Assembly (NCBI GenBank): GCA_965220745.1 | Contig: CBDCQT010000006.1 | Location: forward strand, 1-64,000 | DNA length: 64,000 nucleotides | From: Alphaproteobacteria bacterium | Lineage (GTDB): Bacteria; Pseudomonadota; Alphaproteobacteria; UBA828 | Direction of reading: 5' to 3' | Shown: positions 1 through 64,000 of the stretch, piece after piece | Layout of the letters: the number at the start of each line of letters is the position of its first letter | Position numbering within the stretch: position 1 is the first letter of the stretch | The notes under the pieces: generated by a model | Told to the model about the DNA's origin: nothing | Database searches by the model: none | The model's input: only the letters and a program-made list of their open reading frames with translations | Made by a program: the position numbers and the translations under genes

Positions 1-423
1 GTCGACTGGCCGGCGCTTCCGGTGCGGGCGCCTTGGCTCGCGGAGGTGGTGGGACGCCCGGAGATCCGCTCCGCCGCCGATCGGGACGACCTGCGACGTC
101 GGCTCCGGGGACTCACCCTTGAGGAACGCCGCGATGAACTGGTCCGGTTCCTCGGGGAGCAGGCGGTCCAGGTTCTGGGGCTGCGCTCCGCACCGCCGCC
201 CTCGGCGGGATTCTTCGAGCTGGGCATGGACTCGCTGATGGCGGTCGAGCTTCGCAACCGCCTGAACCGGGCCTTCCGGGGCGCGTTCGTCGTCTCCAAC
301 ACCGCGGTTTTCGATCATCCCGACATTGCCCGCCTGGCGGAACACCTCGCGAGCAAGTTCGACGGCGCGTCGCCGGAGACGCCGCGGGCGCGCGCCCTGC
401 CGCCCGTCCGGCACCGAGGCGAA
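1..423 (+). other. End of upstream module (M0): KR C-terminal tail, linker and ACP
   Basis: GFFELGMDSLMAVELRNRL with the phosphopantetheine Ser codon at 232, followed by VFDHPDIARLAEHL. Confidence 0.93.
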
Positions 424-3400
424 GAACGCATCGCGATCATTGGCATGGCCTGCCGCTTCCCCGGGGCGGAGGACGCCGAGGCGTTCTGGGCACAGCTTCG
501 CGCCGGGGCCGATCTGGTGACGAGGGGGCGCCCGGACGGGCTCTTCGTGGATGCGCAGACAGAGGCGGCGCGCCACTTCGGCGCCTACGTGGAAGGCCTC
601 GACCGCTTCGACGCGGGCTTTTTCCGGATCGCCCCGGTCGAGGCGGAACTGCTCGACCCCCAGCAGCGGATGCTGCTCGAGACCAGCTGGGCGGCGCTGG
701 AGGACGCCGGGATCGCCCCGGACCGGCTGCGCGGCAGCCGAACCGGAGTGTATGGAGGAGTATACAGCCACGACTACGCGGCTCTAGTCTCAACGCCCGG
801 TGACGATGCGTCAGCCAATCTCTACAGGTCCACCGGGATCGCCCCCTCGGCCGCTGTCGGCCGGGTCGCCTTCGCACTCGGCCTCGAGGGTCCGGCCATC
901 ACGGTGGACACGGCGTGTTCCTCTTCGCTGGTCGCGCTGCACCAAGCGGCGGCGGCGCTCCGCACGGGCGAGGCGGACCTGGCGCTGGCGGGAGGGGTGA
1001 ACGCGATCCTGACCTCCACCGCCACGCGGATCTTCACCGACGCGGGCATGCTCGCGGCGGATGGACGCTGCAAGACCTTCGACGCGGCAGCCGACGGCTT
1101 TGTGCGCGGCGAGGGCTGCGGGATGGTCGTGCTCAAGCGCCTCGCGGACGCGCAGGCGGCGGGAGACCGAATCCTCGCGGTCGTGCTCGGATCGGCTGTG
1201 AACCAGGATGGCGCGAGCGCCGGCCTGACCGTGCCGAACGGCCCGGCCCAAGAGCGCGTGATCGAGGAAGCGCTTGCGCGCTCGGGCGCGGAGCCCTCCT
1301 CGGTGGACTACCTGGAGGCGCACGGCACGGGCACCGAGCTGGGCGATCCGATCGAGGTCGAGGCGGCGGCGGCAGTGTACGGTCGCGGCCGCAGCGCGGA
1401 GCGCCCGCTGCTGGTCGGATCGGTGAAGACCAACGTGGGGCACCTGGAGGCGGCGGCGGGCGTGGCCGGGCTGATCAAGACGGTGCTCGCGATCCGCTCC
1501 GGGGTGATTCCGCGCCACCTGCACTTCGAGCGTCCCAACCCGCGGATGGAATGGGAGAAGCTTCCCGTCCGGGTGACATCGGAGACGACTCCCTGGCCGG
1601 AAGCGGAGCGGCCGCGGCGGGCCGCCGTCAGCTCCTTCGGGTACTCGGGTACCAACGCCCATGTCGTGATCGAGGGCTACACGGAGGAGCGCGAACCGTC
1701 GCCCATCGCGGTGCCGGCCCTGCCAGAGCCGGCCACGGATGGCGGCGGACCGCAGTCCGACGCGCCCCGCCAGCACCGCCTGCTGCCGCTGTCGGCGAAG
1801 TCCGGGCAAGCTCTCCGGGAGCTGGCCGACAGGTACCGGGCGGCCGTGTCGGAAGACACACCGCTGGCCGACATGTCTTGGACGGCCGGGACGGGCCGGA
1901 GCCACTTCCCGCACCGCTCGGGCATCGTGTTCAGCGATCGCGCCTCGCTGCAGGCGCAACTGGAGGTGGTGAGGCAGGGTGCCGTCGCGCCGGCCCGCGC
2001 CGGAAAGGTCGCCTTCCTTTACACCGGGCAGGGGAGCCAGTGGGCGGGCATGGGCCGGGAGCTCTACGGGGCCGAGCCGGTCTTCCGGGCGGTGCTGGAC
2101 CGATGCGAGGAGGTATTCCGCGCAGAGCGGGGTGCTTCGCTCCTGCAAGTGATGTTCGAGGATCCCGGCGGGCAGCAGTTGGATCGGACCGAGTGGACGC
2201 AGCCGGCGCTCTACGCGCTGGAGAGCGGTCTGACGGCCCTGTGGGCGAGCGTGGGGGTGCGGCCTGACATCGTGTTCGGGCACAGCGTGGGAGAGATCGC
2301 GGCAGCGGCTGCCGCGGGAGCCTTCGATCTCGAAAGCGGGATGCGGTTCGCCACGCGCCGGGGCGCGCTGATGGGTTCGCTGCCCGACGGAGGAGCGATG
2401 GCGGCGGTGTTCGCTTCAGCGGACCGCGTGCGCGATGCCCTCCCGGGGGGCATCTCTCTGGCCGCTGACAACGGTGCGCACCAACTGGTGAGCGGCCTTA
2501 GGGATGCGGTCGCCGCTCTAGGAGAGGAGCTGTCCCAAGCCGGCATCCGGGTGGAAATTCTCCGGACCAGCCACGCCTTCCACAGCGCGCTGATGGACCC
2601 CGTGCTGGCGGAACTGGAAGCGGCGGCACCCGAAGCCTCGGAACATTCGGTGCGGCTGGTTAGCGATGTGAGTGGCAGCGTTCTGGAGGACGCGCCCGAC
2701 GGAGCGTACTGGCGGCGCCAAGCGCGCGAGCCTGTCCAGTTCGCCACAGCGATACAAACCTTGGCGGAGTTGCAGGCGGTGCTCCTGCTGGAGATCGGGC
2801 CCCATGGCGTGCTGGGGCCGATGGCGGAACTCGGCTGGCCGCACACCGAGTCGCCTACCGTGATCCTCAGCCAAGGGCGCGGCGGAAACGGGGACTTTGT
2901 CGAGGCGGTGGCGGGCGCGTACGAAGCGGGCCTCGACATTGCCTTCGAGGGCCTGTTTGTTGGCGAACGCCGCCGCCGGATCTCGCTGCCTGCCTATCCT
3001 TTCCAGCGGAAACGTTACTGGATCCCCCCCTCCCAGCGTCCGGGGACTGAGGCGGGCCACGCGCTCCTCGGCGTGCAGCGGGATTCCCCGGATGGCGAGC
3101 ACTCGTTCGAGCGGCAGCTGCACGCCCGGGATCCGGCATGGCTGGCAGACCACCGGGTGTTCGGCGAAGTGGTCGCGCCGGGCGCGCTCTACGCGGCGCA
3201 GGTGGGCGAGGCGCTGCGGGAAACGCACCACGAACTTCCCGTCGTGCTCGAGAAGACCGCGATCAAGCGCCCGCTGGTGTTGGCGAGCAACGAGGGCCGG
3301 CTCGTTCAGGTGGTGCTCGGCAAGGACCGTTCTTGGAAGGTCGTCGGCAGGGCTGCCGGGGGGCAATGGGAGCCCCATGCCGAGGGTCGTTGGGCAGACC

Positions 3401-6400
3401 TCGCGGCGGCCGCCCCCGAGCCGGCGGAGCTCGGCGCGCTGCAGGGCGGCCTGGCGCAGCTGGAGGGGGACGCCGGGCCGGGCCTCGGCGGGTTCGAGCA
3501 CGGGCCGGCCTTCCGCGGCCTGGCCCGGCTCTGGTCGGGGCCCGGCGAAGCGCTGGGCGAGGTGCTGCTGCCGGCGGGAACGGACCGGCGCGGCCTGCTC
3601 GCGCATCCGGCCCTGCTCGACGCGTGCCTCCAGGTGCTGGGCGGCATCGAGGAAGTGGCCGAAGCAGGGGGCACGTGGCTGCCCGCCGGCTGGGACCGCT
3701 TCGTGCTGCGCGAGGCGCTGCCGGAGCGCGTCTTCTGCCGGGCGCTCGACCGCGGCGAGGAAGGGGGCGCGCGCAGGGCCGATCTGTGGCTCTACACGGA
3801 GACGGGCGAGGAGCTGGCGCGCATCGAGGGCTTCGCGCTCAGACGCGCGAGCCGGGCGGCCCTGGCGGGACACCGGGCGGAGGAGACGCTGCACGAGGTG
3901 GCGTGGCGCGAGGGGGCGCCGGTGGGACTCCGGGAGGCGGACTTCCTAGCAGGGCCCGAGCAGATCGAGAGCGGCCTGGGAACGCTGGAGGGCTACCTCG
4001 CGGCGGAGGGCGGCGACGCTGCGTCGCTGCCCGTGCTGGGGCGCGCGCTGGAGCGCGAGTCGCGCCGGCTGCTGCTGCGCGGGTTCCGGGAGCTGGGCTG
4101 GCGGCCCAGTCCGGGAGAGCGTTTCGAGACGGACGAGTTGCGCCGCAGGCTGAAGGTGACGGAGGATCACGGGCAGCTGTTCGGCCGCTTGCTGGCGGTG
4201 CTGGAGCAGATGGGGGTCTTGGGACGGGACCCGGCAGGCGGCTGGCAGGTGGCGGCCGCGCCGGAACTGCCCCCAGAGCCTGAGGCTGAGGCGGGACCGA
4301 CCGACTCAGAAGCCGATTCGATCGAGCTGGGCGTGCTGCGCCGCTGCGGGGAGTCGCTCGCCGAGGTGCTCCGCGGCCGCGCCGACGGGCTGGACCTGCT
4401 GTTCGGCGGTGAGCCGGGAGCGGCGAGCCTGTACCGCGAGTCGGCGGCCATGCGGGCGCTGAACCGCATGGCCGCCGAGGCCGTGCGCGCGGCGGCCGCG
4501 GGACTGCCCGAAGGCCGCCCGCTGCGGGCGGTCGAGATCGGCGCGGGCACGGGCGCGACCACGTCCGCCGTGTTGGACGCGCTGCCGGCCGGCCGGACCG
4601 AATACAGCTTCACCGACATCTCGAGCGCCTTCTTCCCGGAAGCCGAGCGGCGCTTCGGAGAACGCGGCGCGGAGTTGCGCTTCCGGGCGCTGGACATCGA
4701 GCGGGACCCGGCCGATCAGGGCTTCGCGCAGCACGGCTACGACTTCGTGATCGCGGCGAACGTGCTGCACGCGACGCGCGACCTGGGCGAGACGCTGGCC
4801 CACTGCCGGCGCCTGCTGGCCCCGTCGGGCGTGCTGGTGGCCGTCGAGGAAGCCGCCGCCAAGGAATGGCTGGACCTGACCTTCGGGCTGCTGCCCGGCT
4901 GGTGGCGCTTCCGGGACGCGTACCGCTCCGAGCACGCGCTGGTCGGGCCCCCGGTCTGGCGCCAGGCCCTGGCGGACGCCGGCTTCGGCGGCATGTCCCT
5001 GCTCGAGGATCCGTCCGGGGCGCTGCTGATCCTGGCGCGCGGGCCGTCGCAGGTGCAGGCCGGCCGGGGCCGTTTCGTGCTGGCGGGAACGGGAGCGTTG
5101 CCCGCGGCCCTCGAAGCGGAACTGCGCAAGCGGGGACAGGACGTGCTGGCGGGCCCGGCGGACGGGGGGCGGGCTTCATGGCGGTCATTCTTCAAGGCGC
5201 CGGGCGGGGAGGCGCCGCTGCGGGGCGTGGTGCACTTGGAAGGCGTGCGGCGCGACTCGGCGGGGCTCTCGACCGCAGAGCTGGCTGCGGACGCGGAGCG
5301 CATCGGGGCGAGCGCGCTGGCACTGGTCCAGGGGATGTCGGACGCCGGCGTGACGCCGGCGAGCGGCACTTGGTTCGTGACCCGGGGCGGGCAGGTGATC
5401 GGCCGGGAGCGCTGCGGCGCCCTGCCCGGTGCCATGCTGTGGGGCCTGGCGAGCGTGGTGGGGCTGGAGCACGCGGACCTGACCCCCCGCCTGCTGGACT
5501 TGGACCCGGAGGCGGACCCGGACGCCGGCACGCTGGCGGACGAGTTGCTGTTTGCAGACCGGGAGACGCGCGTCGCCCTGCGGGGCGGAGCCCGCCTGGT
5601 CGCCCGGCTGACCCGGTTCGCGGGGCGGGCCGAGCTCCCGGAAGGCGGCGGCTGGCGCTGGGCGGCCGATCCGGCCGGGGCGCTCGACGCGCTGCGCGTG
5701 GAGCAGGTGTCGAAGAACGCGGGTCCGGGCGAGGTGCTGGTGCGGGTCGAGGCGACCGGGGTGAACTTCCACGACGTGATGGTGGGGATGCAGGCCGTGG
5801 AGGCCGGCCAGCCGCTCGGCATCGAGCTGTGCGGGCGGGTCGTGGAGGCCGGCCAGGGCGTGCGGGAGCTGCAGGCGGGGGACCGGGTGGCGGGATTCGC
5901 CCGGGGAGCGTTCGGGCCCGAGGTGGTCACGCGGGCGGAGTGCGTCGTTCCGGCACCGCCGGGGCTGTCGGCGGCGGAGCTGGCGACCCTGCCGGTGGCG
6001 TCGGTGACCGCGGCGCTGGCCTTCGAGCACGCGGGCCTGGCAGAGGGGGCGCGGGTGCTGGTCCATGCCGGCGCGGGGGGCGTGGGCCACGCCGCGATCC
6101 GGCAGGCGCAGGCCGCGGGGCTGGAGGTGTACGCGACTGCGAGCGCGCCGAAGCGGGAGTACCTGCGTTCGCTGGGGGTCGCGGCGGTGTTCGACAGCCG
6201 CTCGCCGGCCTTCGGGAAGCAGGTCTTGGAAGCGACCGCGGGCGCGGGTGTGGAGATGGTGCTGAACAGCCTCTCCGGGGAGGGCTTGATCGAGGCCAGC
6301 CTGTCGTGCCTTGCGCCGGGCGGAGCCTTCGTAGAGCTCGGCAAGCGCAACATCCGCAGCGCCGGGGAGATGGCGGCCGAGCGCCCGGACGTTCGCTACC

Positions 6401-9400
6401 TGGAGTTGGCGCTGGACCGGCTCATGCGGGAGGAGCCGGAGCGGCTCGGGACGGTGCTGCGGAGGGTGATGGAGCGGGTCGCGTCGGGGCAGCTCGCGCC
6501 CCTGCCCTTCACCCGCTGGCCGCTGGCGGAGGCCGCCGCGGCGCTGGCGGAGCTGCAGGCGGCGCGCCATATCGGGAAGGTCGTGCTGGTGCCGTCGGCG
6601 CTGGCGGCGGGCCGGCTGCGGCAGGACCGCAGCTATCTGATCACGGGGGGGCTCGGAGGGGTCGGGCTGGAGGCGGCGCGCTGGCTGGCTGGGGCCGGGG
6701 CCGGGGCCATCGTGCTGAACGGGCGCCGCCCGCCAGAGGCGGCAGCGGCGGCGGCAGTGGCGGAACTCCGGGCGGGCGGCGCGGAGGTGCGCGTCGAGAT
6801 CGCGGACGTGACGGACGGGGAGGCGGTGGCGGGCATGCTCCAACGCATCGACGCCGAGCTGCCGCCGCTGGCGGGGGTGATCCACAGCGTGGGAGCGCTG
6901 GCGGACGCGGCGCTGACGAACCAGGACTGGGAGCGCTTCGAGCGCGTGCTGGGGCCCAAGGCGCTGGGGGCCTGGCGGCTGCACCGGGCGACGCTCGACC
7001 GGCAGCTGGACCTGTTCGTGCTCTTCTCCAGCCTGACGGGCGTGGTCGGGTATCCGGGGCTGGCCAACTACGCGGCGGCCAACGCCTTCCTGGACCAGCT
7101 GGCGCGGCACCGCCGGGCGCTCGGCCTGCCCGGTCAGGCCATTGCGTGGGGGCCATGGTCGGAGACCGGCAAAGCCGAACAGCGTCGCGAACTCATCGCA
7201 ACACAGCTAGCCCGCTACGGCGAGGAATGGATCGCTCCCGAACAAGGCATCCAGACGTTGGCGCGGCTCGTGCGCGAGGACGTGGGGACCAGCGTGGTGG
7301 CGTCCGTCGACTGGCCGGCGCTTCCGGTGCGGGCGCCTTGGCTGGCGGAGGTGATGGGACGCCCGGAGATCCGCTCGGTCGACGGCCCGGACGACCTTCT
7401 AGGCCGACTCCGGGGACCCGCTGCCGAGGAACGCCGGGATGGACTGGTCAGGTTCCTCGAGGAACAGGTGGTCCAGGTCCTGCGGCTGCGCTCCGCCCCG
7501 CCGTCCTCGGCGGGATTCTTCGAGCTGGGCATGGACTCGCTGATGGCGGTCGAGCTTCGCAACCGCCTGAACCGGGCCTTCCGCGGCGCGTTCGTTGTCT
7601 CCAACACCGCAGTGTTCGATCATCCCGACATTGCCCGCTTGGCGGAACACCTTGCGAGCAAGTTTGAGGGCGTGTCGCCGGAGACGCCGCGGGCGCGCGC
7701 CCTGCCGTCCGACCGACGCCGCGACGATGGACGAATCGCGATTGTCGGCATGGCCTGCCGATTCCCCGGGGCGGAGGACGCCGAGGCGTTTTGGGCGCAG
7801 CTTTGCGCCGGGGCGGACTTGGTAATTAGGGGGCGCCCGGACGGGCTCTTCGTGGATGCCGAGACGGAGGCGGCACGCCACTTCGGCGCCTACGTGGAAG
7901 GCCTAGACCGCTTCGACGCGGGCTTTTTCCGGATCGCCCCGGTCGAGGCGGAACTGCTCGACCCCCAGCAGCGGATGCTGCTCGAGACCAGCTGGGCGGC
8001 GCTGGAGGACGCCGGGATCGCCCCGGACCGGCTGCGCGGCAGCCGAACCGGGGTGTATGGCGGAGTATGCAGCCACGACTACGCGGCCCTGGTCTCAACA
8101 CCCGGCGACGATGCGTCAGCCAATCTCTACAGGTCCACCGGGATCGCCCCCTCGGCCGCTGTCGGCCGGGTCGCCTTCGCGCTCGGCCTCGAGGGTCCGG
8201 CCATCACGGTGGACACGGCGTGTTCCTCTTCGCTGGTCGCGCTGCACCAAGCGGCGGCGGCGCTCCGGGCGGGCGAGGCGGACCTGGCGCTGGCGGGAGG
8301 GGTGAACGCGATCCTGACCTCCACCGCCACGCGGATCTTCACCGACGCGGGCATGCTCGCCGCGGATGGACGCTGCAAGACCTTCGACGCGGCAGCCGAC
8401 GGCTTTGTGCGCGGCGAGGGCTGCGGGATGGTTGTGCTCAAGCGCCTCGCGGACGCGGAGGCGGCGGGAGACCGAATCCTCGCGGTCGTGCTCGGATCGG
8501 CTGTGAACCAGGATGGCGCGAGCGCCGGCCTGACCGTGCCGAACGGCCCGGCCCAAGAGCGCGTGATCGAGGAAGCGCTTGCGCGCTCGGGCGCGGAGCC
8601 CTCCTCGGTGGACTACTTGGAGGCGCACGGCACGGGCACCGAGCTGGGCGATCCGATCGAGGTCGAGGCGGCGGCGGCGGTATACGGCCGTGGCCGGGGC
8701 GCGGACCGCCCGCTGCTGGTCGGATCGGTGAAGACGAACGTGGGCCATCTCGAGGCGGCGGCGGGCGTGGCCGGACTGATCAAGGCGGTGCTCGCGATCC
8801 GCTCCGGGCTGATTCCGCGCCACCTGCACTTCGAGCGTCCCAACCCGCGGATGGACTGGGAGAAGCTTCCCGTCCGGGTGACATCGGAGACGACTCCCTG
8901 GCCGGAAGCGGAGCGGCCGCGGCGTGCCGCCGTCAGCTCTTTCGGGTACTCGGGCACCAACGCCCATGTCGTGATCGAGGGCTATGCCGAGGAGCGCGAA
9001 CCGCCACGCATCGCGGTGCCCGCGCTGCCGGAGTCGGGTGCTGATGGCCGCGTCCCGCAGGCCGACGCTCCCCGCCAGCACCGCCTGCTGCCGCTCTCGG
9101 CGAAGTCCGAGCAAGCTCTCCGGCAGCTGGCCGCCAGCTACCGGGCGGCCGTGTCGGAAGACACACCGCTGGCGGACATGTCTTGGACGGCCGGGACGGG
9201 CCGGAGCCACTTCCCGCACCGCTCGGGCATCGTGTTCAGCGATCACGCCTCGCTGCGGGAGCAGCTGGAGGTGGTGAGGCTGGGTGCCGCCGCGTCGTCC
9301 CGCGCTGGAAAGGTTGCCTTCCTTTACACCGGACAGGGGAGCCAGTGGGCGGGCATGGGCCGGGAGCTCTATGCGACCGAGCCGGTGTTCCGGGCGGTTC

Positions 9401-12400
9401 TGGACCGATGCGAGGAGGTATTCCGCGCAGAGCGAGACGCGTCTCTGCTGCAGGTGATGTTCGAGGATCTTGGCGGGCAGCAGTTGGATCGGACCGAGTG
9501 GACGCAGCCGGCGCTCTACGCGCTGGAGAGCGGTCTGACGGCCCTGTGGGCGAGCGTGGGGGTGCGGCCTGACATCGTGTTCGGGCACAGCGTGGGAGAG
9601 ATCGCGGCAGCGGCTGCCGCGGGAGCCTTTGATCTCGAGACCGGGATGCGGTTCGCCACGCGCCGGGGCGCGCTGATGGGTTCGCTCTCCGAGGGGGGGG
9701 CGATGGCGGCGGTGTTCGCTTCGGCGGAGCGGGTCGCTGCCAGCCTTGACGGTGCGGTGTGCCTGGCCGCCGATAACAGCACTCACCAAGTCGTGAGCGG
9801 CCCGGAGGCCGACATCGAGGCACTGCTGAAGAGGTTCGAAGAGGACGGTCTGCGCGTGGAGCGTCTGCGCACCAGCCACGGCTTCCACAGCGCGCTGATG
9901 GATCCGGTGTTGGCGGAGCTGGAAGCGGCGGCGCCCGGGGCCTCGGCACCGGCGGTGCGACTGGTGAGCGATGTGAGCGGGCAGGTGCTGGAAGGGGCTC
10001 CCGACGGAGCGTACTGGCGGCGCCAGGCGCGCGAGCCGGTCCAGTTCGCGACGGCGCTGCGGACGCTGGCGGACTTGCAGGCGGGGCTTTTGCTGGAGAT
10101 CGGGCCGCATGGCGTGCTGGGTCCGATGGCGGCGCTGGGCTGGCCGCACGGCGAGGCGCCTGTGGTGATCCCGAGCCAGCAGCGCGGCGGCAACGGAGAC
10201 TTCGTGGGGGCGGTGGCGGGCGCGTACGAGGCGGGTCTGGACATTGCCTTCGAGGGCCTGTTTGTCGGGGAGCGGCGGCGGCGGGTCTCGCTGCCCGCCT
10301 ATCCCTTCCAGCGGGAGCGCCACTGGGTCTCTCGTTCCCGGCGTTTACAGACTGAGATCGGAAATGTGCTCCTCGGTGTGCAGCGGGATTCCCCGGGTGG
10401 CGAGCACTCCTTCGAGAAACAGCTGCGCAGTCGGGATCCGGCGTGGCTCGCCGACCACCGGGTGTTCGGCGAAGTCGTCGCACCCGGCGCACTGTACGCG
10501 GCGCAGGCGAGTGAAGCCCTCCAAGAAACGCATCACGAACTTCCTGTCGTCCTCGAGGAAACCGCGATTACGCGCCCGCTCGTGCTGTCGGGCGACAAGG
10601 GGCGTCTGGTCCAAGTGGTGCTCGGCGAGGAGGGCGCTTGGAAAGTCGTCAGCAGGGATGCGGGCGGGCGATGGGAGACACATGCCGAAGGCCGCTGGGC
10701 ATCTCTCGCCGGGGCCACGCCCGAGTCGGCAGACCTCGGTGCGTTGAAGTCCAGCCTCGCACGGCTGGCTCCGGACTTCGAGTCGGTACTGGTTGGCCTT
10801 GAGTACGGGCCGGCCTTCCGCGGTCTGGGCCAGCTCTGGTCGGGTCACGGTGAAGCACTGGGCGAGGTGCTGCTGCCTGCCGGCGTGGATCACAGGAATC
10901 TTCTCGTGCACCCGGCACTGCTCGACGCGTGTTTCCAGGTACTGGGCGCTGTCCCGGAGCTGGCGGAAGCAGGAGGGACATGGCTGCCGATCGGCTGGGA
11001 CCGCCTCGTCCTGCGCGACGCGCTGCCGGCGCGCATCTTCTGCCGGGCACTCGACCGCGGAGAGGGCGGGCAGACACGCAAGGCAGACCTCTGGCTCTAC
11101 ACGGAGACGGGCGATGAGCTTGCGCACATCGAGGGCTTCACGCTTAGACAGGCGAACCGGACGGTCCTGTCGGGTCGCCGGGTGGAGGAGGCGCTGCACG
11201 AGGTGGTGTGGCGCGAAGGGGCGGCGGTCGGATTCCGGCAGGCGGACTTCCTAGCCGCACCAAAGGAGATCGAGTCCGGCCTAGGGGGCCTGAACGGATA
11301 TCTCGAGGCGGAGGGCCGCGACGGGGCTTCGCTCGCAGCGTTGGGGCGCAAGCTGGAGCTTGAGTCCCGTCGGCTGCTACTGCGGGGATTCCGGGAACTG
11401 GGATGGGAGCCTAGTGCGGGAGACCGCTTCGAGACGGACGAGCTGCGCCGCCAGCTCAGGGTTACAGAGGATCACCGGCGGCTGTTCGGCCGCTTGCTGT
11501 CGGTGCTGGAGGAGATGGGACTCCTCGAGCGGGAATCGGCGGGTGGCTGGCAGGTTACAACCACGCCGGAAGCGCCCCCGGAGCCTGAGGCGGGACCGAC
11601 CGACTCCGCAGCCGATTCCATCGAGCTGGGCCTGCTCCGCCGCTGCGGGGAGTCGCTCGCCGACGTGCTCCGCGGCCGCGCCGATGCGCTGGACCTGCTC
11701 TTGGGCGGAGAACCGGGAGCGGCGAGCCTGTACCGCGAGTCACCCGCCATGCGCGCGCTGAACCGCATGGTCGCTGACGCTGTGCGCGCAGCGGTCGCCG
11801 GACTGCCGGAAGGCCGGCCGCTGCGGGTGATCGAGCTTGGCGCAGGGACGGGCGCAACCTCCTCCTCCCTTCTAGACGTCCTGCCGGCCGACCAGACCGA
11901 GTTTACCTTCACCGACATCTCGACGGACTCGGTCACTGATGCTGAGCAGCGGTTCGGCGAGCGGGGCGCGGGCCTTCGCTTCCTAGCGCTCGACATCGAA
12001 CGGGACCCGGCGGATCAGGGCTTCGCACTCCACGGCTACGACCTCGTGGTCGCCGCGAACATCTTGCACGCGACCCGCGACTTGGGTGAGACGCTCGCCC
12101 ACTGCAGGCGCCTCCTGGCCCCGTCGGGCGTGCTGGTGGCCGTCGAGGAAGCCGCACGCAAGGAGTGGCTGGACCTGACCTTCGGACTGCTGCCCGGCTG
12201 GTGGCGCTTCCAAGATGCGTATCGCTCCGACCACGCGCTGGTCGAGCCCCCCGTCTGGCGACAGGCCATCGCGGACGCCGGATTTGCGGAGACTTCCCTG
12301 CTAGAGGATCCTTCCGGGGCGCTGCTGATCCTGGCGCGGGGGCCGGCGGAGGCGAGGGCCGAAGGCGGGCTGTTCGTGCTGGCCGGGAAGAGTGAGCTGG

Positions 12401-54400: not shown

Positions 54401-57400
54401 CGATCGCCGCCTTGGCCGAGGACCTCTCCAAGGAAGGGATTCGGGTGCAACCCCTCCAGACCAGCCACGCCTTCCACAGCGCACTGATGGATCCGGTGCT
54501 GGAGGAACTGGAAGCGGCGGCTCCTAGGTCCTCGGTACTGGCGGCAACGCTGGTGAGCGATGTCAGCGGGCGTGTCCTCGAAGGAGTCCCGGACGGAGCG
54601 TACTGGCGACGCCAGGCGCGCGAGCCGGTCCAATTCGCCGCCGCGGTGCGGACGCTGGCAGACTTGGAGGCGGGGCTTCTGCTGGAGATCGGGCCCCATG
54701 GCGTGCTGGGCCCGATGGCGGCGCTGGGCTGGCCGCAAAGCGAGGCGCCAACGGTGATTTCGAGCCAGCGGCGCGGCTCGAACGGGGACTTTGTCGGCGC
54801 AGTGGCGAGTGCGTACGAGGCGGGTCTGGACATTGCCTTCGAGGGCCTGTTTGTCGGGGAACGGCGGCGGCGGGTCTCGTTGCCCGCCTACGCGTTCCAG
54901 CGGCAGCGTTACTGGACCTCCGCTTCCCCGCGCCGGCAGTCGGAGGCGGGACACGCGCTGCTCGGGGTGCGTCGGGATTCCCCGGATGGCGAGCATTCCT
55001 TCGAGCGGCAGCTGCACAGCCGGGATCCGGCCTGGCTGGCAGACCACCGGGTGTACGGAAACGTTGTAGCGCCGGGTGCGCTCTACGCGGCGCAGGTGGC
55101 CGAAGCGCTTCGCGAAACGCACCACGGAGTCCAAGCCGTGCTCGAAGAGAGCGTGATCACGCGCCCGCTCAGGTTGTCGGACGATGAGGGCCGGCTGGTC
55201 CAGGTCGTGCTTGATGAGGACGGCGCTTGGAGGGTTGTCAGCAAGGATGCGGGCGGGCGATGGGAGACGCACGCCGCAGGCCGCTGGGCACCGCACGCCG
55301 CAGTCCCGTCCGAGCCGGCAGATCCCGCCGTGCTGCAGGAGGGCCTCGCCGAGGCGGACGTTGCAGGCGTGTACTTGGAGTTGGGCGCCTCTGGACTCGA
55401 CTATGGTCCCGCCTTCCGCGGCCTGGTCCGGCTCTGGTCGGGGCCTGGCGAAGCCTTGGGCGAGCTGCTGCTGCCGGAGGGATTGGAGAACCGGAACCTT
55501 CTCGTGCACCCGGCACTGCTCGACGCATGTTTCCGGGTGCTGGGGGGCGTTCCGGAAATGGCGCGACCAGGGGGGACGTGGCTGCCGGTCGGCTGGGACC
55601 GCTTTGTCCTGCACGAGGCGCTGCCGGAGCGGGTCTTCTGCCGGGCACTGGATCGCGGCGAGGACGGGCAGAAGCGCACAGCAGACTTCTGGATTTATAC
55701 GGAGACGGGCGAGGAGCTGGCGCGCATCGAGGGCTTCGCGCTCAGACAGGCGAGCCGGTCGGCGCTGTCAGGTGACCGGGCAGAGGAGATGCTGCACGAA
55801 GTGGTGTGGCGCGAGGGGGCAGCGGCGGGACTCCGGGAGGCGGAATTCCTCGCCGGGCCGGAAGCGATCGCTTCGGGCCTGGGAGGGCTGGACGGATATC
55901 TCGACGCGGAGTCCCGCAACGGGGCGTCCCTCTCCGCCCTCGGGAGCGAGCTGGAGCGTGAGGCTCGCCGGCTGCTGCTGCGCGGATTCCGGGAGTTGGG
56001 ATGGGACCCCAAGACGGGAGACCGTTTCGAGACGGACGAGTTGCGCCATCGGCTGAGGGTGACAGAGGATCACGGGCGGCTGTTCGGCCGGTTGTTGTCG
56101 GTGCTGGAGGAGATGGGACTTCTCGACCGGGAATCGGCGGGCGGCTGGCGCGTGGCAGCCGCGCCCGAAGCGCCTGGGGAGCTGGAGGCGGGGCCGGCTG
56201 ACTCCCAAGCCGAGTCCGTCGAGCTGGGCCTGCTCCGCCGCTGCGGGGAGTCGCTCGCCGACGTGCTCCGCGGCCGCGCCGATGCGCTGGACCTGCTCTT
56301 CGGCGGCGAGCCGGGAGCGGCGAGCCTGTACCGCGAGTCCCCCGCCGTGCGGGCGTTGAACCGCATGGTCGCCGACGCCGTGCGCGCAGCGGGGGCCGGC
56401 TTGCCGGAAAGCCGGCCGCTGCGGGTGATCGAGGTCGGCGCAGGGACGGGCGCGACCGCCGCCGCCCTCTTGGGCGTGCTGCCGGCCGACCGGAGCGAAT
56501 ACACCTTCACCGACATCTCGACGGACTCGTTCCCGGACGCGGAGCGGGAGTTCGGCGAGCGGGGCGCGGGCCTTCGCTTCCTAGCGCTCGACATCGAACG
56601 AGATCCGACGGATCAGGGGTTCGCTCCCCACGGCTACGACCTCGTGATTGCCGCGAACGTCTTGCATGCAACCCGAGACCTAGGTGAGACGCTCGCTCAC
56701 TGCCGGCGCCTGCTGGCCCCGTCGGGCGTGCTGGTGGCCGTCGAGGAGACCGCCCGCAAGGAGTGGCTGGACCTGACCTTCGGACTGCTGCCCGGCTGGT
56801 GGCGCTTCCAAGATGCGTATCGCTCCGACCACGCGCTGGTCGGGCCCCCCGTCTGGCGCCAAGCCCTCGCGGACGCCGGATTCGCGGAGACCTCCCTGCT
56901 GGAGGATCCGTCTGGGGCGCTTCTGATCCTGGCCCGGGGGCCGTCGGAGGCGGGGGCCGAAGGCGGGCTGTTCGTGCTGGCCGGGGAGAGCGAGCTGGGC
57001 GCCGAGTTGGCGGCGGAGCTGGAGCGCCGGGGCAGCCGGGCGGTCGAAGGCCCCACGGAGGCCGACCGGCAGGCGTGGCGCGGGTTCTTCGAGTCCTTGC
57101 CGGGCGCGCTTCCGCTGCGCGGCGTGGCGTATCTGGGCGGGCTCCGGCCAGACGGTGCCGAGCTCTCGACTCGGGATCTGGCAGCGGAGCTGCAGGCAGT
57201 CGATGCGGGAGCGCTGGCGCTGGTCCAGGGGATGTCGGACGCGGGCGTGTCGCCGGTGAGCGGCACTTGGTTCGTGACCCGGGGCGGCCAGGTGATCGAG
57301 CGGGAGCGCGGCGGCGCGCTCGCGGGTGCCTCGCTGTGGGGCTTCGCCAGCGTGGTGGAGTTGGAGCACGGGGATATGACGCCGCGCCTGCTGGACTTGG

Positions 57401-60400
57401 ATCCCGAGTCTCCCCTGTCCACCGGCGCGCTCGCCGACGAGTTGCTCTTCCCCGACCGCGAGACGCGCGTCGCCCGCCGGGGCGGGGACCGCTTGGTGGC
57501 CCGGCTGACGCGCCTCGCCGGGCGGGCTGAGGACTCGGCGGAAGCCGGGCCGGGCGAGGCCCGGCTGCGCGGGGACCGCAGCTATCTGATCACGGGCGGG
57601 CTCGGGGGGCTCGGGCTGGAGGTGGCGCGCTGGCTGGCCGGGGCGGGCGCCGGGGCCATCGTGCTGAACGGACGTCGCGCGCCCGACACGGACACCGAGG
57701 CGCTGATCGCGGAGCTCCGGCAGGGCAGCGCCGAAGTGCGCGTGGAGATTGCCGACGTCACGGACGAGGATGCGGTGGCGGGGATGCTCGGGCGGATCGA
57801 TGCCGAGCTGCCGCCGCTGGCGGGCGTGATCCACAGCGTCGGCGCGCTTGCCGACGGGGCATTGACAAACCAAGACTGGGAGCGCTTCGAGCGGGTGCTG
57901 GGGCCCAAGATCCTAGGGGCTTGGCGGCTGCACCGGGCTACGCTCGACCGGCAGCTGGACCTGTTCGTCCTCTTCTCCAGCCTGGCGGGCGTGGTCGGAA
58001 ACCCGGGACAGGCCAACTACGCGGCGGCCAACGCCTTCCTCGACCAGCTGGCAAGGCACCGGAGGGCGCTGGGCCTGCCGGGTCAGGCCGTTGCGTGGGG
58101 ACCGTGGTCGGGCATCGGCGAGGCCGAGGAGCAGCGTGAGCGTATCGGGATGCAGCCCGCCGACTCGGGCGAGGAATGGATCGCTCCCGAACAGGGCATC
58201 CGTGCGTTGGCGCGGCTCGTGCGCGAGGACATCGGAACCAGTGTGGCGGCATTCGTCGACTGGGCTGCGCTTTCGGTGCGGGCACCCTGGCTAGCGGAAG
58301 TGGCGGGGCGCGAAGAGGACCGCGCTTCCGCCGCTCCGGGCGATCTGCTCAAGCGGCTCGGGGGCCTCGCCGTCGGGGAGCGCCGCGAAGAACTGATCCG
58401 GTTCCTCGAGGAACAGGTGGTCCAAGTTTTGCGGCTGCGATCCGCACCGTCGTCCACGGCAGGATTCTTCGAGCTGGGCATGGACTCGCTGATGGCGGTC
58501 GAGCTTCGCAACCGCCTGAACCGGGCCTTCCGGGGCGCGTTCGTGGTCTCGAACACTGCAGTGTTCGATTATCCCGACATCGCCCGCCTGGCAGAACACC
58601 TTGCGGGCAAGCTTGCGGGAATGGCTCTGGAAGCACCGCATGCGCGTGCTGCCCTGCCCCCCGTCCGGCACCGGGCGGACGAACGCATCGCGATCGTCGG
58701 CATGGCCTGCCGCTTCCCCGGGGCACCGGATGTCGAGGAATTTTGGGCACAGCTTCACTCCGGGGCCGATATGGTGACGAGGGGCCGCCCGGACGGGCTG
58801 TTCGTGGATGCCGAGACGGAGGCTGCGCGCCCCTTCGGCGCTTATGTGGAGGGCCTCGACCACTTCGACGCGGGCTTCTTCCGGATCGCCCCGGTCGAGG
58901 CAGAACTCCTCGACCCCCAGCAGCGGATGCTGCTCGAGACCAGCTGGGCGGCGCTTGAAGACGCCGGCATCGCTCCGAACGGGCTGCGGGGCACCCGAAC
59001 CGGGGTGTATGGCGGGGTCTCAATGAGCGATTACCACGCCCTTATCGCAGAGGCCGCGGACAACCCGTCGGCCAACCTTTACCGCTCTACAGGCGCCACC
59101 CCCTCGATCGCGGTGGGCCGAGTAGCCTTCGCCCTAGGCCTCGAGGGTCCGGCGATCACGATTGACACCGCGTGTTCCTCGTCCTTGGTCGCGCTTCACC
59201 AAGCGGCAGCGGCGCTGCGCGCGGGCGAGGCGGACCTGGCGCTGGCGGGAGGAGTGAACGCGATCCTGCGGTCAGAGCCCACCAGTCTCCTGACCGACGC
59301 CGGCATGCTCGCCGCAGATGGGCGTTGCAAGACTTTCGACGCGGCGGCCGATGGTTACGTACGGGGCGAGGGATGCGGGATGGTGGTGCTCAAACGCCTC
59401 GCGGACGCGGAGGCGGCAGGGGACCGGATCCTCGCGGTTGTGCTCGGGTCGGCCGTGAACCAAGACGGCGCGAGCGCCGGCCTGACCGTGCCGAACGGCC
59501 CGGCCCAAGAGCGGGTGATCGAGGAGGCGCTCGCGCGGGCGGGCGTCGAGGCCTCCTCGGTCGACTACTTGGAGGCACACGGCACGGGCACCGAACTGGG
59601 CGATCCGGTAGAAGTGGAGGCGGCTGCTGGGGTGTACGGCCGCGGCCGGAGCGCGGACCGCCCGCTGCTGATCGGCTCGGTGAAGACGAACGTGGGCCAC
59701 CTCGAGGCGGCGGCGGGCGTGGCCGGGCTGATCAAGGCGGTGCTGGCGATCCGTTCCGGGGTGATTCCGCGCCACCTGCACTTCGAGCGGCCCAACCCGC
59801 GGATGGACTGGGAGAAGCTCCCCGTCCGGGTGACGTCGGAAGCGACGCCCTGGCCGGACGAGGAGCGGCCGCGGCGAGCCGCCGTCAGCTCCTTCGGATA
59901 CTCCGGAACCAATGCCCACGCCGTGGTCGAGGGATATGCAGAAGAGCCCGAACCGCCGCCCATTGAAGTGCCCGCACTTCCGGCGTCGGGTGCGGATGAC
60001 CGCGTCTCGCAGGCTGACGCGCCCCGCGTGCACCGCCTACTCCCGCTCTCGGCGAAGTCCCAAGACGCTCTCCGGCGGCTGGCTGATCGATACCAAGCCA
60101 TGCTCTCGGACGATACCCCGCTTGCCGACATGGCTTGGACGGCGAGCACCGGCCGGAGTCATTTCCACTGCCGTTCCGGCCTTGTGTTCAGCGATCGCGC
60201 CTCGCTGCAGGAGCAGCTGGAGGTGGTGAGGCAGGGAGTTGTGGCGGCGTCCACGCAAGGAACGGTCGCGTTCCTCTACACCGGGCAGGGGAGCCAGTGG
60301 GCGGGCATGGGCCGGGAGCTCTATGAGGCCGAGCCGGTCTTCCGGGCGGTTCTGGACCGCTGCGAGGAAGTGTTCCGCGCGGAGCGCGGCAGGGCGCTTC

Positions 60401-63400
60401 TCCCGGTGATCTTCGACGATGCCGGGCGGCTGGACCGGACCGAGTGGACGCAGCCGGCGCTGTACGCGCTGGAGAGCGGGCTGACCGCGCTGTGGGCCAG
60501 CGTGGGGGTGCGGCCCGACATCGTGTTCGGGCACAGCGTGGGAGAGATCGCGGCAGCGGCTGCCGCGGGAGCCTTCGATCTCGAGAGCGGGATGCGCTTC
60601 GCCACGCGCCGGGGCGCGCTGATGGGTTCACTCTCCGAGGGCGGTGCGATGGCGGCGGTGTTCGCTTCGGCGGAGCGGGTCGCTGCCAGCCTTGACGGTG
60701 CGGTGTGCCTGGCGGCCGATAACGGCACGCACCAAGTCGTGAGCGGGCCGGAGGCCGACATCGAGGCGCTGCTGAAGAGGTTCGAAGAGGACGGTCTGCG
60801 CGTGGAGCGCCTGCGGACCAGCCAGGCCTTCCACAGCGCGCTGATGGATCCGCTGCTGGCGGAGCTGGAAGCGGCGGCGCCCGCGGCCTCGGCACCGTCG
60901 GTGCGACTGGTGAGCGATGTGAGCGGGCAGGTGCTGGAAGGGGCTCCCGACGGAGCGTACTGGCGGCGCCAGGCGCGCGAGCCGGTCCAGTTCGCGACCG
61001 CGCTGCGGACGCTGGCGGACTTGCAGGCAGGGCTTTTGCTGGAGATCGGGCCGCATGGCGTGCTGGGCCCGATGGCGGCGCTGGGCTGGCCGCGCGGCGA
61101 GGCGCCCACGGTGATCCCGAGCCAGCAGCGCGGCGGGAACGGGGACTTCGTCGGGGCGGTGGCGGGCGCGTACGAGTCGGGTCTGGAGATTGCCTTCGAA
61201 GGCCTGTTTGCCGGGGAGCGGCGGCAGCGGGTCTCGCTGCCGGCCTATCCGTTCCAGCGGGAGCGCTATTGGATCTCCGCCTCTCCGCGGCGGCGGTCAG
61301 AAGCGGGGCACGCGCTGCTCGGGGTGCGGCGGGATTCCCCGGATGGCGAGCATTCCTTCGAGCGGCAGCTAGACAGCCGGGACCCGGCTTGGCTGGCAGA
61401 CCACCGGGTGTTCGGGAAGGTCGTGGCGCCGGGGGCGCTGTACGCGGCGCAGGTGGTAGAAGCGCTTCGCGAAACGCACCCTGGAGTCCGGGTCGTGCTC
61501 GAGGAGAGTGCGATCACGCGCCCGCTTGTGCTGGCGGGCGAGGAGGGCCGGCTGGTTCAGGTGGTGCTGGGCGAGGACGGGGGCTGGAAAGTCGTCAGCA
61601 GGGCTGCTGGCGAGTCATGGGAGACACACGCCGAAGGACGCTGGGCTCCGCTGGCAGCAGCTGCGTCCGAGGCAACGGACCTCGGGGCGCTACAGGGCAG
61701 CCTCGTCGAAGCGGCCGTGGAAGAGGGATACCTGGAGCTGCGTGCTGCCGGTCTCGATTACGGTCCGGCCTTCCGCGGACTGGCCCGGCTGTGGTCGGGC
61801 CCCGGCGAGGCGCTGGGCGAGGTGCTGCTGCCGGCGGGAATGGAACATCAGGCGCTGCTCGCGCATCCGGCACTGCTCGACGCCTGTTTCCGGGTCCTGG
61901 GCGGCGTCGCGGAACCGGATGGAGCCAGAGGCACATGGCTGCCGATCGGCTGGGACCGTTTCGTCCTGCGCGAGGCGCTGCCAGAGCGCGTTTTCTGCCG
62001 GGCACTGGACCGCGGCGAAGGTGGGCAGACCCGCAAGGCAGATCTCAGCCTCTATACGGAGACGGGCGAGGAGCTGGCGCGCATCGAGGGCTTCTCGCTC
62101 AGACGGGCGAGCAGAACCGCGCTTTCGGGCCTCCGGGTGGACCAGGCGCTGCACCAGGTGGCGTGGCGCGAGGGGGCGGCGGTGGGCCTCCGGGATGCGG
62201 ACTTCCTCGCCGAGCCGCAGGAGATCGAGTCCGGCCTGAGAGCGTTGGACGGATACCTAGAGGCGGATGATCGTGACGGGGCGTCGCTCGCCGCACTGGG
62301 GCGCGAGCTCGAATGTGAGGCACGCCGGCAGCTGCTCGGCGCATTCCGGGGGCTGGGATGGGAGCCCAAGCCGGGAGACCGTTTCGAGACGGACGAGTTG
62401 CGACGCCGGCTGAGGGTGACCGAGGATCACGGGCGGCTGTTCGGCCGGTTGCTGTTGGTGCTGGAGGAGATGGATCTCCTCGAGCGGGAGCCGACTCGCG
62501 GCTGGCGCGTGGCAGCCGCGCCGGAAGTGCCTACGGAGCCCGAGGCGGGACCGGCCGATTCCCAAGCCGATTCCATCGAGCTGAGCCTGCTCCGCCGCTG
62601 CGGGGATTCGCTTGCTGACGTGCTCCGCGGCCGCGCCGATGCGCTGGACGTGCTCTTCGGCGGTGAGCCGGGAGCGGCGAGCCTTTACCGCGAGGCGCCC
62701 GCAATGCGGGCGCTGAACCGCATGGTTGCCGACGCGGTGCGGGCGGCGGTCGCCGGGCTGCCGGATGGCCGGCCGCTGCGTGTGATCGAGGTCGGCGCGG
62801 GGACCGGCGCGACCACCGCCGCCCTCTTGGACGTCCTGCCGGCCGACCGGACCGAATACACCTTCACCGACATCTCGCCCGGCTTCTTCCCGGACGCCGA
62901 GCGGGAGTTCGGCGAGCGGGGCGCCGACCTTCGCTTCCTGGCGCTCGACATCGAACGGGACCCGGCAGAGCAGGGCTTGGCGCTCCACGGCTATGACCTC
63001 GTGATCGCCGCGAACGTCCTGCACGCGACCCGCGACCTAGGCCAGACGCTCGCCCACTGCCGACGCCTGCTGGCCCCGTCGGGCGTGCTGGCGGCCGTCG
63101 AGGAAGCCGTTGCCAAGGAATGGCTGGACCTGACCTTCGGACTGCTGCCCGGCTGGTGGCGCTTCCAAGACGCGTATCGCTCCGACTACGCGCTGGTCGG
63201 GCCTCCCGTCTGGCGGCAGGCTCTCGCGGATGCGGGATTTGGCGGGACCTCCCTGATCGAGGATCCGTCCGGGGCGCTGCTGATCCTGGCGCGGGGGCCG
63301 TCGGAGGCGGGGTCCGAAGGCGGGCTGTTCGTGCTGGCCGGCGAGAGCGAGCTGGGCACCGAGCTGGCGGCGGAGCTGGAGCGCCGAGGCAGCCGGGCCG

Positions 63401-64000
63401 TCCAAGGCCCCGCGAAGGCTGATCGCGAGGCGTGGCGCGGGTTCTTCGAGTCCTTGCCGGGGGCGCTTCCGCTGCGCGGCGTGGCGTACCTAGGCGGGCT
63501 CCGGCCAGACGGTGCCGAGCTTTCGACCCGGGAGCTGGAAGCGGAGCTGCAGGCAGTCGATGCGGGCGCGCTGGCGCTGGTCCAAGGGATGTCGGACGCG
63601 GGCGTGTCGCCGGTCAGCGGCACTTGGTTCGTGACCCGGGGCGGCCAGGTGATCGAGCGGGAGCGCTGCGGCGCGCTCGCGGGTGCCTCGCTGTGGGGCT
63701 TCGCCAGCGTGGTGGAGCTGGAGCACGGGGATCTGACGCCGCGCCTGCTGGACCTGGATCCGGAGTCTCCCCCGTCCGCCGGCGCGCTCGCCGACGAGCT
63801 GCTCTTCCCCGACCGCGAGACGCGCGTCGCCCGCCGGGGCGGGGACCGCTTGGTGGCCCGGCTGACGCGCCTCGCCGGGCGGGCGGAGGATTCGGCGGAA
63901 TCCGGGCCGGGCGAGGCGCGGCTGCGCGGGGACCGCAGCTATCTGATCACGGGAGGGCTCGGAGGGCTCGGGCTGGAGGTGGCGCGCTGGCTGGCCGGGG
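1..64000 (+). CDS. Giant multimodular cis-AT type I polyketide synthase, internal fragment with no start or stop in the window (>=21,333 aa)
   Basis: Frame +1 begins VDWPALPVRAPWLAEV...GFFELGMDSLMAVELRNRL (ACP) and ends RSYLITGGLGGLGLEVARWLAG (KR). All ten KS Cys codons (916, 8221, 14599, 20953, 27313, 33658, 40045, 46432, 52819, 59173) are in frame +1. The ORF track lists only frame +2/+3 and minus-strand ORFs, consistent with no stop in frame +1. Confidence 0.96.
424..7728 (+). other. PKS module 1: KS-AT-DH-cMT-psiKR-ER-KR-ACP (fully reducing, C-methylating)
   Basis: KS: DTACSSS (Cys 916), HGTGT (1321), NVGHLE (His 1441). AT: GQGSQW, GHSVG (2278), HAFH (2572). DH: HRVFGEVVAP (His 3151), DACLQ. 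cMT: EIGAGTGAT (4534), ANVLHAT (His 4768). ER about 5653-6588. KR: TGGLGGVG (~6643), GLANYAAAN (Tyr 7069). ACP Ser 7537. Confidence 0.93.
5653..6588 (+). other. Enoylreductase domain, the only ER in the window
   Basis: GPGEVLVRVEATGVNFHDV, GDRVAG, NADPH-binding VLVHAGAGGVGHAA (~6055-6096), VLNSL, FVELGK, ARHIGKVVL. It accounts for module 1 being about 940 nt longer than the others. Confidence 0.9.
7729..14106 (+). other. PKS module 2: KS-AT-DH-cMT-psiKR-KR-ACP
   Basis: KS Cys 8221. AT GHSVG 9583, HGFH 9877. DH His 10456, DACFQ. cMT ELGAGTGAT ~11833. KR NYAAAN Tyr 13420. ACP Ser 13915. No ER. Confidence 0.92.
14107..20460 (+). other. PKS module 3: KS-AT-DH-cMT-psiKR-KR(His)-ACP
   Basis: KS Cys 14599. 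AT GHS 15955, QAFH 16249. DH His 16828. cMT EVGAGTGAT 18214. KR QANHAAAN His 19801. ACP Ser 20269. Confidence 0.92.
20461..26820 (+). other. PKS module 4: KS-AT-DH(inactive?)-cMT-psiKR-KR(His)-ACP
   Basis: KS Cys 20953. AT GHS 22309, HAFH 22603. DH WLADFRVFG with Phe at 23182 in place of His. cMT 24574. KR His 26161. ACP Ser 26629. Confidence 0.92.
26821..33165 (+). other. PKS module 5: KS-AT-DH-cMT-psiKR-KR-ACP
   Basis: KS Cys 27313. AT HAFH 28963. DH His 29542. cMT 30919. KR NYAAAN Tyr 32506. ACP Ser 32974. Confidence 0.92.
33166..39552 (+). other. PKS module 6: KS-AT-DH-cMT-psiKR-KR(His)-ACP
   Basis: KS Cys 33658. AT QAFH 35308. DH His 35887. cMT 37279. KR His 38866. ACP Ser 39361. Confidence 0.92.
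39553..45939 (+). other. PKS module 7: KS-AT-DH-cMT-psiKR-KR(His)-ACP
   Basis: KS Cys 40045. AT QAFH 41695. DH His 42274. cMT 43666. KR SSLKGVVGSPGQANHAAAN His 45253. ACP Ser 45748. Confidence 0.92.
45940..52326 (+). other. PKS module 8: KS-AT-DH-cMT-psiKR-KR-ACP
   Basis: KS Cys 46432. AT HAFH 48091. DH His 48670, DACFH 49147. cMT 50056. KR Tyr 51667. ACP Ser 52135. Confidence 0.92.
52327..58680 (+). other. PKS module 9: KS-AT-DH-cMT-psiKR-KR-ACP
   Basis: KS Cys 52819. AT HAFH 54466. DH His 55045, DACFR 55522. cMT 56431. KR Tyr 58018. ACP Ser 58486. Confidence 0.92.
58681..64000 (+). other. PKS module 10, cut by the window end: KS-AT-DH-cMT-psiKR-KR start
   Basis: KS Cys 59173. AT QAFH 60823. 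DH His 61402, DACFR 61879. cMT 62788. KR SYLITGGLGGLG from 63937. No ER. Confidence 0.92.

Follow-up and report, generated by a model that had tools for sequence, protein, structure and literature searches.

A stretch of 64,000 nucleotides at the very start of contig CBDCQT010000006.1 (here C6, 143,729 bp; assembly GCA_965220745.1), hereafter the window, is very probably the interior of a real and selectively maintained modular cis-acyltransferase (cis-AT) type I polyketide synthase (PKS) gene, carried as a single open reading frame (ORF) by a sponge-associated bacterium. Among modular cis-AT PKSs the enzyme stands out for its extreme size and for the unusual way in which it ends, and it is larger than any bacterial PKS chain that was found described. 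Neither this gene nor any bacterial PKS chain above 20,000 amino acids (aa) was found described in a literature search that left subscription journals and supplements outside its scope.

An earlier interpretation made from the letters of the window (the sequence-only reading) had proposed one uninterrupted PKS frame of at least 21,333 aa and a mass above 2 MDa, and both proposals were borne out. A stop count in all six frames, which looked for an in-frame stop as the observation that would contradict the proposal, found none in frame +1 over bases 1-63,999 (21,333 codons); the other five frames contain 145-548 stops each with no open run longer than 1,084 codons, and approximately 407 stops per 21,333 codons are expected from base composition alone. 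GC content in frame +1 is 77%, 52% and 84% at codon positions 1, 2 and 3, respectively. When the frame was extended into the contig, the flanking stop that the sequence-only reading had proposed to look for was located 16.2 kb past the window end (Table 1), giving a visible product of 26,722 aa and 2.842 MDa, to which the window contributes 2.269 MDa. The gene had also been thought to run on at both sides, which was observed directly at the 3' end; at the 5' end, where window base 1 is also contig base 1 and the gene is cut by the contig edge, continuation is inferred from the frame being open at base 1 and from an orthologue in the chromosome-level metagenome-assembled genome (MAG) G041. The first 600 aa of the window best match aa 3284-3883 of that orthologue (91%), and colinearity between the two indicates that approximately 3,283 aa, corresponding to a loading module and the first extension module (m1), would be missing at the C6 edge, which would make the whole protein approximately 30,000 aa and 3.1-3.2 MDa. 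The contigs of the source assembly were searched and the loading module is on none of them. The further suggestion that start- and stop-dependent ORF calling would miss the gene held with a qualification, i.e. the frame is listed when open ends are allowed and, by the ORF lister's own description, such frames are otherwise omitted.

Domains were mapped with Pfam on three stretches and on the last 2,612 aa, and with phmmer searches seeded with the module-1 domains along the whole frame. The visible chain consists of 76 domains, beginning with an acyl carrier protein (ACP0), continuing through modules M1-M12 and closing with a terminal ketosynthase-acyltransferase pair (KS0-AT0) and the stop. 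M1 and M11 have the order KS-AT-DH-cMT-ER-KR-ACP, where DH, cMT, ER and KR are dehydratase, C-methyltransferase, enoylreductase and ketoreductase domains; M2-M10 lack the ER, and M12 (KS-AT-DH-KR-ACP) lacks the cMT. The regular order of 13 KS, 13 AT (12 intact and one degenerate) and 13 ACP domains is that of a modular cis-AT type I PKS. Within the window there are 10 KS, 10 AT, 10 DH, 10 cMT, one ER, nine whole KR and 10 ACP domains, arranged as nine complete modules together with the ACP of the preceding module and a tenth module that is cut inside its KR, so that the earlier figure of at least 11 modules is reached only by counting the two partial ones. Short ACP-to-KS linkers rich in Pro and Arg and free of stops had likewise been described, and this largely stood: 12 of the 13 junctions measure 26-27 aa and contain no stop, although they are also rich in Ala and Val and the last linker is approximately 60 aa long.

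Orthologues were sought in public genome contigs with the single-copy terminal KS0-AT0 as query, and were found at 73-94% identity in five loci of four MAGs. The G041 orthologue is complete; its frame (C1:243,301-332,322) extends over 29,674 codons from stop to stop and has an ATG as its seventh codon, and read from there the product has 29,668 aa, 3.155 MDa and 84 domains, encoded in approximately 89 kb. The chain opens with a loading KS(Ser)-AT-ACP; two modules with ER follow, then ten of the type KS-AT-DH-cMT-KR-ACP, a further one that lacks the cMT, and finally KS0-AT0. G042, a single 5.9-Mb contig labelled Rhodothermales, contains two frames of 27,735 and 27,729 aa, a double copy that could be a real duplication, two merged strains or the product of transfer, and in G044 a short-read contig carries a frame of 17,911 aa. 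The C-terminal ending (...YPFQRER.W) is also present in proteins P0124 and P0125, and the gene was found in sponge and marine metagenomes of seven studies. Meanwhile, large protein-library searches listed no match above 7,957 aa in the 5,500-17,500 aa range, another search gave nothing above 7,601 aa among its top 150 matches and a further one covered 3,703-5,000 aa only; these searches are no evidence either way on giant proteins, all of which were found at the DNA level, and proteins of 17,911-29,674 aa may be absent from, or split in, such libraries.

A frame built from similar modules might be open only because the modules are homologous and in phase, and assembly could have expanded, collapsed or shuffled them. 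The gene does contain 436 repeated 127-mers, with a longest exact repeat of 224 bp in 80 kb, and C6 ends inside it; public short-read contigs over the gene are only 270-770-bp pieces, in which nine between-module joints appear, each in one to three of four runs, as expected of repeats. However, DNA identity between modules is 77-91.5%, i.e. a divergence of 8.5-23%, and G042 and G044 have comparable arrays, of approximately 27,700 aa in the former and at least 17,911 aa in the latter. Furthermore, in a module identity matrix the best matches of 12 of the 13 module units in G041, a chromosome assembled independently, keep the colinear order (M1-M10 with m2-m11, M12 with m13 and terminal pair with terminal pair, at 85-91%, 84% and 87% identity, respectively), a diagonal that shuffling would destroy. 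The assignment of M4 is close, to m5 by bit score (85.3%) as against m6 by identity (85.7%), and M11 is the only ambiguous unit, having an ER where m12 has none. Positions 30,001-50,000 are covered by the short-read contigs, from four runs of four studies, at 95-100% identity with no indel reported; parts of low cover carry no meaning. Because orthology between independent assemblies is one-to-one and colinear, a repeat-expansion or shuffling artefact, named in the sequence-only reading as an outcome that would overturn it, was not upheld and is considered highly improbable. The same module-by-module correspondence with G041 indicates that the array predates the split of the two organisms.

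With the canonical KS, AT, ACP, DH and KR motifs as yardstick, the catalytic residues are mostly intact. KS1-12 carry Cys-His-His, the terminal KS being the exception among 13, and all 12 module ATs have GHSVG (GHSxG) with HAFH or HGFH, which presumably marks them as malonyl type. The S-adenosylmethionine (SAM) motif and LHAT are retained in 11 of 11 cMTs, and the Ser in 13 of 13 ACPs. The statement that frame +1 carries every catalytic motif was therefore right for most positions but not for DH4 or for KR3, KR4, KR6 and KR7. In DH4 (window 23,089-23,916) the catalytic His is replaced by Phe (WLADFRV), a motif absent from the G041 gene, in which the 11 DH motifs found ahead of the last module all have His; the Phe may have arisen in this lineage alone, the product keeping a hydroxyl at the corresponding position. 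Six of the 12 KRs (KR3, 4, 6, 7, 10 and 11) have His at the expected catalytic Tyr (ANHAAAN as opposed to ANYAAAN). Inactivation was considered as an explanation and dropped, as the Tyr/His state agrees in all 10 comparable orthologous pairs with G041 and the His type accounts for 141 of the 554 KR motifs that 379 related proteins yielded, many of these 141 coming from ER-containing modules. By these sequence comparisons, the His-type KR is a regular, position-specific variant of the clade.

The end of the chain departs furthest from the canonical motifs. DH12 has Tyr for its catalytic His, the terminal KS retains the Cys and has lost both His, and the terminal AT has Gly for Ser together with a deletion of approximately 60 aa that includes the HAFH region. 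Each of these states is found in G041, the change in DH12 recurring in the last DH there, and because they are identical in the two genes they are, on this comparison, conserved states and not decay. The chain stops at the post-AT linker (...YPFQRERHWIS); no match to a thioesterase (PF00975) or a reductase was found in the last 2,612 aa, and no ACP follows KS0-AT0. A terminal release domain is common in the modular PKS family without strictly defining it. Six bases past the PKS stop begins an ORF with a C-terminal 250-aa alpha/beta hydrolase, which is the sole conserved neighbour (98%, 83% and 73% identity in loci L010, L009 and L012, respectively). In G041 a stop lies inside the N-terminal extension of the hydrolase, and the real protein is therefore approximately 339 aa.

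The ratio of non-synonymous to synonymous substitution (dN/dS) is 0.22-0.27 among the paralogous modules M2-M10 (36 pairs, dS 0.20-0.48) and 0.19-0.28 across 13 orthologous pairs with G041 (dS 0.23-0.40), the terminal KS0-AT0 being at 0.234. These values bear on a second alternative, in which the DNA is real but there is no single giant enzyme, the gene being in decay, silent, or made or processed as several smaller proteins. The lost His of DH4, the catalytically gutted terminal KS and AT, the missing thioesterase and the mobile-element genes that flank the locus both here and in G041 would all suit a gene of this kind, but constraint extends to every module and to the terminal pair, there are zero stops over 80-89 kb in at least four genomes and none between any ACP and the next KS, and the states of the terminal pair and the last DH are shared with G041. 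The alternative is judged unlikely.

Several points nevertheless weigh against the preferred reading of one intact giant enzyme. A single polypeptide is deduced from the frame, the true start and total length in the source genome are extrapolated as the 5' end is missing, and contigs of 270-770 bp do not directly show long-range order in the source sample. AT specificity and KR type are predictions from general motif rules, and the predicted reduction pattern may be wrong, with DH4 lacking its His and half of the KRs being of the His type. The hydrolase has no thioesterase family match, only weak generic alpha/beta-hydrolase matches (best PDB match E 3e-5), and a role for it in release is a guess.

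The domain order allows a route to be proposed for a chain translated in one piece. The KS(Ser) loading module would supply acetate as the starter, each AT would load malonate over 13 extensions, and the in-line SAM-dependent cMT would add an alpha-methyl group in every module but the last extension module, i.e. 12 C-methylations. The KR and DH, with the ER in a few modules, would set the degree of reduction, giving full reduction in ER modules, enoyl groups elsewhere and a hydroxyl where the DH has no His, and the chain would be handed from ACP to KS across the 26-27-aa covalent linkers in place of docking domains. The predicted product is a multi-methyl-branched, largely unsaturated 3-hydroxy acyl chain with a C28 backbone and 12 methyl groups (C40), probably a lipid. 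Off-loading would proceed without a fused thioesterase, by way of KS0, in which only the Cys is left, together with the gutted AT and the alpha/beta hydrolase, the only conserved neighbour, acting in trans. A wider synthesis would see here the largest bacterial PKS family (27,700-29,700 aa, up to 3.15 MDa, 84 domains), with an entire 13-extension line in one gene of approximately 89 kb, a hard-wired, non-iterative descendant of Sup-type enzymes that makes a C40 multi-methyl-branched polyene lipid, off-loads it by a new KS0/AT0/hydrolase route and moves horizontally as a two-gene cassette between distant sponge symbionts. As a whole this synthesis is tentative and more doubtful than probable.

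The closest relatives of the gene's host, a sponge-associated bacterium, are MAGs labelled Bryobacterales (Acidobacteriota). The RpoB and GyrB of the source bin (contig C11) are 92-93% identical to those of a same-genus genome and 52-60% identical to those of G041-G044, and the gene is in none of 20 other genomes of the bin's genus, scans that are uninformative on the real host lineage. Horizontal transfer into the organism of the bin was first read from these two results and then rejected, as the flanks of C6 match G043, a MAG labelled Bryobacterales: non-PKS DNA of C6 is 95-97% identical and syntenic to it, including a 19.5-kb stretch at the contig's far end that aligns in one piece, and the C6 helicase and thiamine pyrophosphate (TPP) enzyme are 97-98% identical to those of G043 and 31-40% identical to those of same-genus genomes. 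Contamination of the bin is 5.18%. The simplest account is that C6 comes from a G043-like acidobacterium and was placed in the wrong bin, in which case genus-centred scans on the source bin do not describe the host of the gene. Transfer elsewhere, in G042, may be real. The G042 modules are 77-78% identical to M5 of the window and its terminal pair is at 73%, while its GyrB is 57% identical to that of G041 over 557 aa and the G041 GyrB is 78-79% identical to those of G043 and G044. As a separate observation on these genomes, the RpoB matches lie in open frames of 2,892 aa in G041 (C1:1,576,460-1,578,109) and 2,941 aa in G043 (C199:6051-7736), which suggests a fused rpoB-rpoC frame in both.

Further downstream of the hydrolase on C6 there are genes for a group II intron reverse transcriptase (C6 85,965-87,443; L002 1965-3443), an MscS channel, and the helicase and TPP enzyme; no other biosynthetic gene was found in the downstream neighbourhood of the PKS on C6. 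The region C6 80,175-80,650, approximately 160 codons ahead of the hydrolase domain, shows 83-98% translated conservation in L009 and L010 and is interrupted by a stop in G041; rather than coding for protein, it may be conserved as non-coding or regulatory DNA. The flanks of the G041 gene contain a recombinase, a DruA fragment, a DUF772 transposase and an rve integrase.

Table 1. Coordinates of the giant PKS gene, its modules and associated features. Plain positions are those of the window; positions on C6 beyond 64,000 lie past it.
Feature	Position	Strand	Basis or remark
Frame +1 ORF	1..64000	+	Covers codons 1-21,333; whole frame at least 26,722 codons, stop at C6 80,167-80,169
ACP0, carrier of the unassembled preceding module	133..345	+	phmmer; aligns to ACP of G041 m1
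M1 KS-AT-DH-cMT-ER-KR-ACP, predicted fully reducing	424..7728	+	Pfam, phmmer; G041 m2 orthologue 86%
M2 KS-AT-DH-cMT-KR-ACP	7729..14106	+	phmmer, motifs; G041 m3 orthologue 87%
M3 KS-AT-DH-cMT-KR-ACP, KR with His at expected Tyr	14107..20460	+	Pfam, phmmer; G041 m4 orthologue 89%
M4 KS-AT-DH-cMT-KR-ACP, DH with Phe for His, KR His-type	20461..26820	+	Pfam, phmmer; G041 m5 orthologue 85%
M5 KS-AT-DH-cMT-KR-ACP	26821..33165	+	phmmer; G041 m6 orthologue 87%
M6 KS-AT-DH-cMT-KR-ACP, KR His-type	33166..39552	+	phmmer; G041 m7 orthologue 86%
M7 KS-AT-DH-cMT-KR-ACP, KR His-type	39553..45939	+	phmmer; G041 m8 orthologue 89%
M8 KS-AT-DH-cMT-KR-ACP	45940..52326	+	phmmer; G041 m9 orthologue 86%
M9 KS-AT-DH-cMT-KR-ACP	52327..58680	+	phmmer; G041 m10 orthologue 91%
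M10 KS-AT-DH-cMT and first 21 KR codons in window	58681..64000, on to C6 65,034	+	phmmer; G041 m11 orthologue 90%
His-type KRs in window	KR3 19,363-19,896; KR4 25,723-26,256; KR6 38,428-38,961; KR7 44,815-45,348		
M11 with ER	C6 65,035-72,333		Past window
M12 without cMT	C6 72,334-77,772		Past window
Terminal KS0-AT0	C6 77,773-80,166		Past window
Alpha/beta-hydrolase ORF	C6 80,175-81,674		Past window
G042 copies	C1:1,979,714-2,062,405; 3,103,000-3,185,673	+; -	Inverted, approximately 1 Mb apart, nearly equal scores
G041 mobile-element loci	L009 12,826-14,787 and 16,825-17,661; L038 4428-5798		

A gene of this kind would raise the largest size known for bacterial assembly-line enzymes from approximately 17,000 aa (MlsA1) to approximately 30,000 aa, and indicates that a single chain, free of docking domains, can accommodate a complete 13-extension PKS. 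A blind spot in annotation is exposed as well, in that ORF callers needing a start and a stop within the window miss the gene and short-read assemblies shatter it, and with no library match listed above 7,957 aa such genes may stay unseen at the protein level. As the gene is conserved under purifying selection and present in the metagenomes of seven studies, its product is probably a significant and as yet unassigned sponge-symbiont lipid. Furthermore, the KS0-AT0 pair with the hydrolase and the position-specific His-type KRs offer testable enzymology. NRPS and PKS proteins are the major bacterial clusters among proteins above 5,000 aa (PMC11573180), and a survey of giant genes (10.1101/2023.11.21.568195) uses neither 'polyketide' nor 'PKS' anywhere in its text.

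Three known systems invite comparison. PKZILLA-1 and PKZILLA-2 of the alga Prymnesium parvum are single-gene gigasynthases missed by standard annotation, PKZILLA-1 reaching 45,212 aa, and the quinolidomicin system needs 13 proteins (10.1101/2024.01.29.577497). The gene described here is like the PKZILLAs in having tens of PKS domains on one chain and a non-elongating KS0, but those are eukaryotic, spliced, trans-AT-like and of 140 domains, whereas this gene is bacterial and cis-AT, with 76 visible domains (84 in G041) and approximately 30,000 aa.

Among bacterial enzymes, MlsA1 of the Mycobacterium ulcerans mycolactone system, which the sequence-only reading had chosen as its yardstick, is a fair comparison. 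The mlsA1 gene is 51 kb and the combined mass of the three Mls proteins is approximately 3.0 MDa (PMC2569948); the giant gene exceeds 80 kb here and reaches 89 kb in G041. MlsA1 has been called one of the largest cellular enzymes, and both are bacterial cis-AT systems with many fused extension modules that arose from duplication. The very high inter-module identity of the Mls proteins is not matched by the 77-91.5% DNA identity and dS of 0.20-0.48 seen here. The giant also differs from MlsA1 in its 12-13 extension modules per chain, in methyl branches predicted to come from in-line cMT domains, in its KS0-AT0 end without a C-terminal thioesterase and in a locus that is chromosomal in G041 and G042, not plasmid-borne.

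The third comparison is with the Sup-type enzymes, cis-AT PKSs of sponge microbiomes like the giant. The domain set KS-AT-DH-cMT-ER-KR-ACP, which we take to be the SupA-type module order, recurs in M1 and M11, whereas nine modules have no ER. Sup enzymes are described as small, monomodular and presumably iterative, and are proposed as makers of methyl-branched fatty acids (PMC4245539); the giant, by contrast, is not monomodular, with 12 extension modules visible and 13 in G041. SA1_PKSB (P0139), from a Discodermia dissoluta symbiont, has three KS-AT-DH-cMT-(ER)-KR-ACP modules and is 49% identical. A Sup-like PKS of 3,459 aa on contig C5 of the source assembly (G000:C5:214,272-224,648; L003) has the order KS-AT-DH-cMT-ER-KR-ACP followed by a second KS-AT which, like KS0-AT0, ends at the post-AT linker and in which the KS motifs are lacking; it is 51% identical to M1, and the modules of the giant are 51-62% identical to its module. 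PKS matches of 53-55% identity were also found in 14 of 20 same-genus genomes searched and are probably orthologues of the C5 enzyme. In appearance the giant is a non-iterative relative of the Sup-type PKS in which the modules are set out in line.

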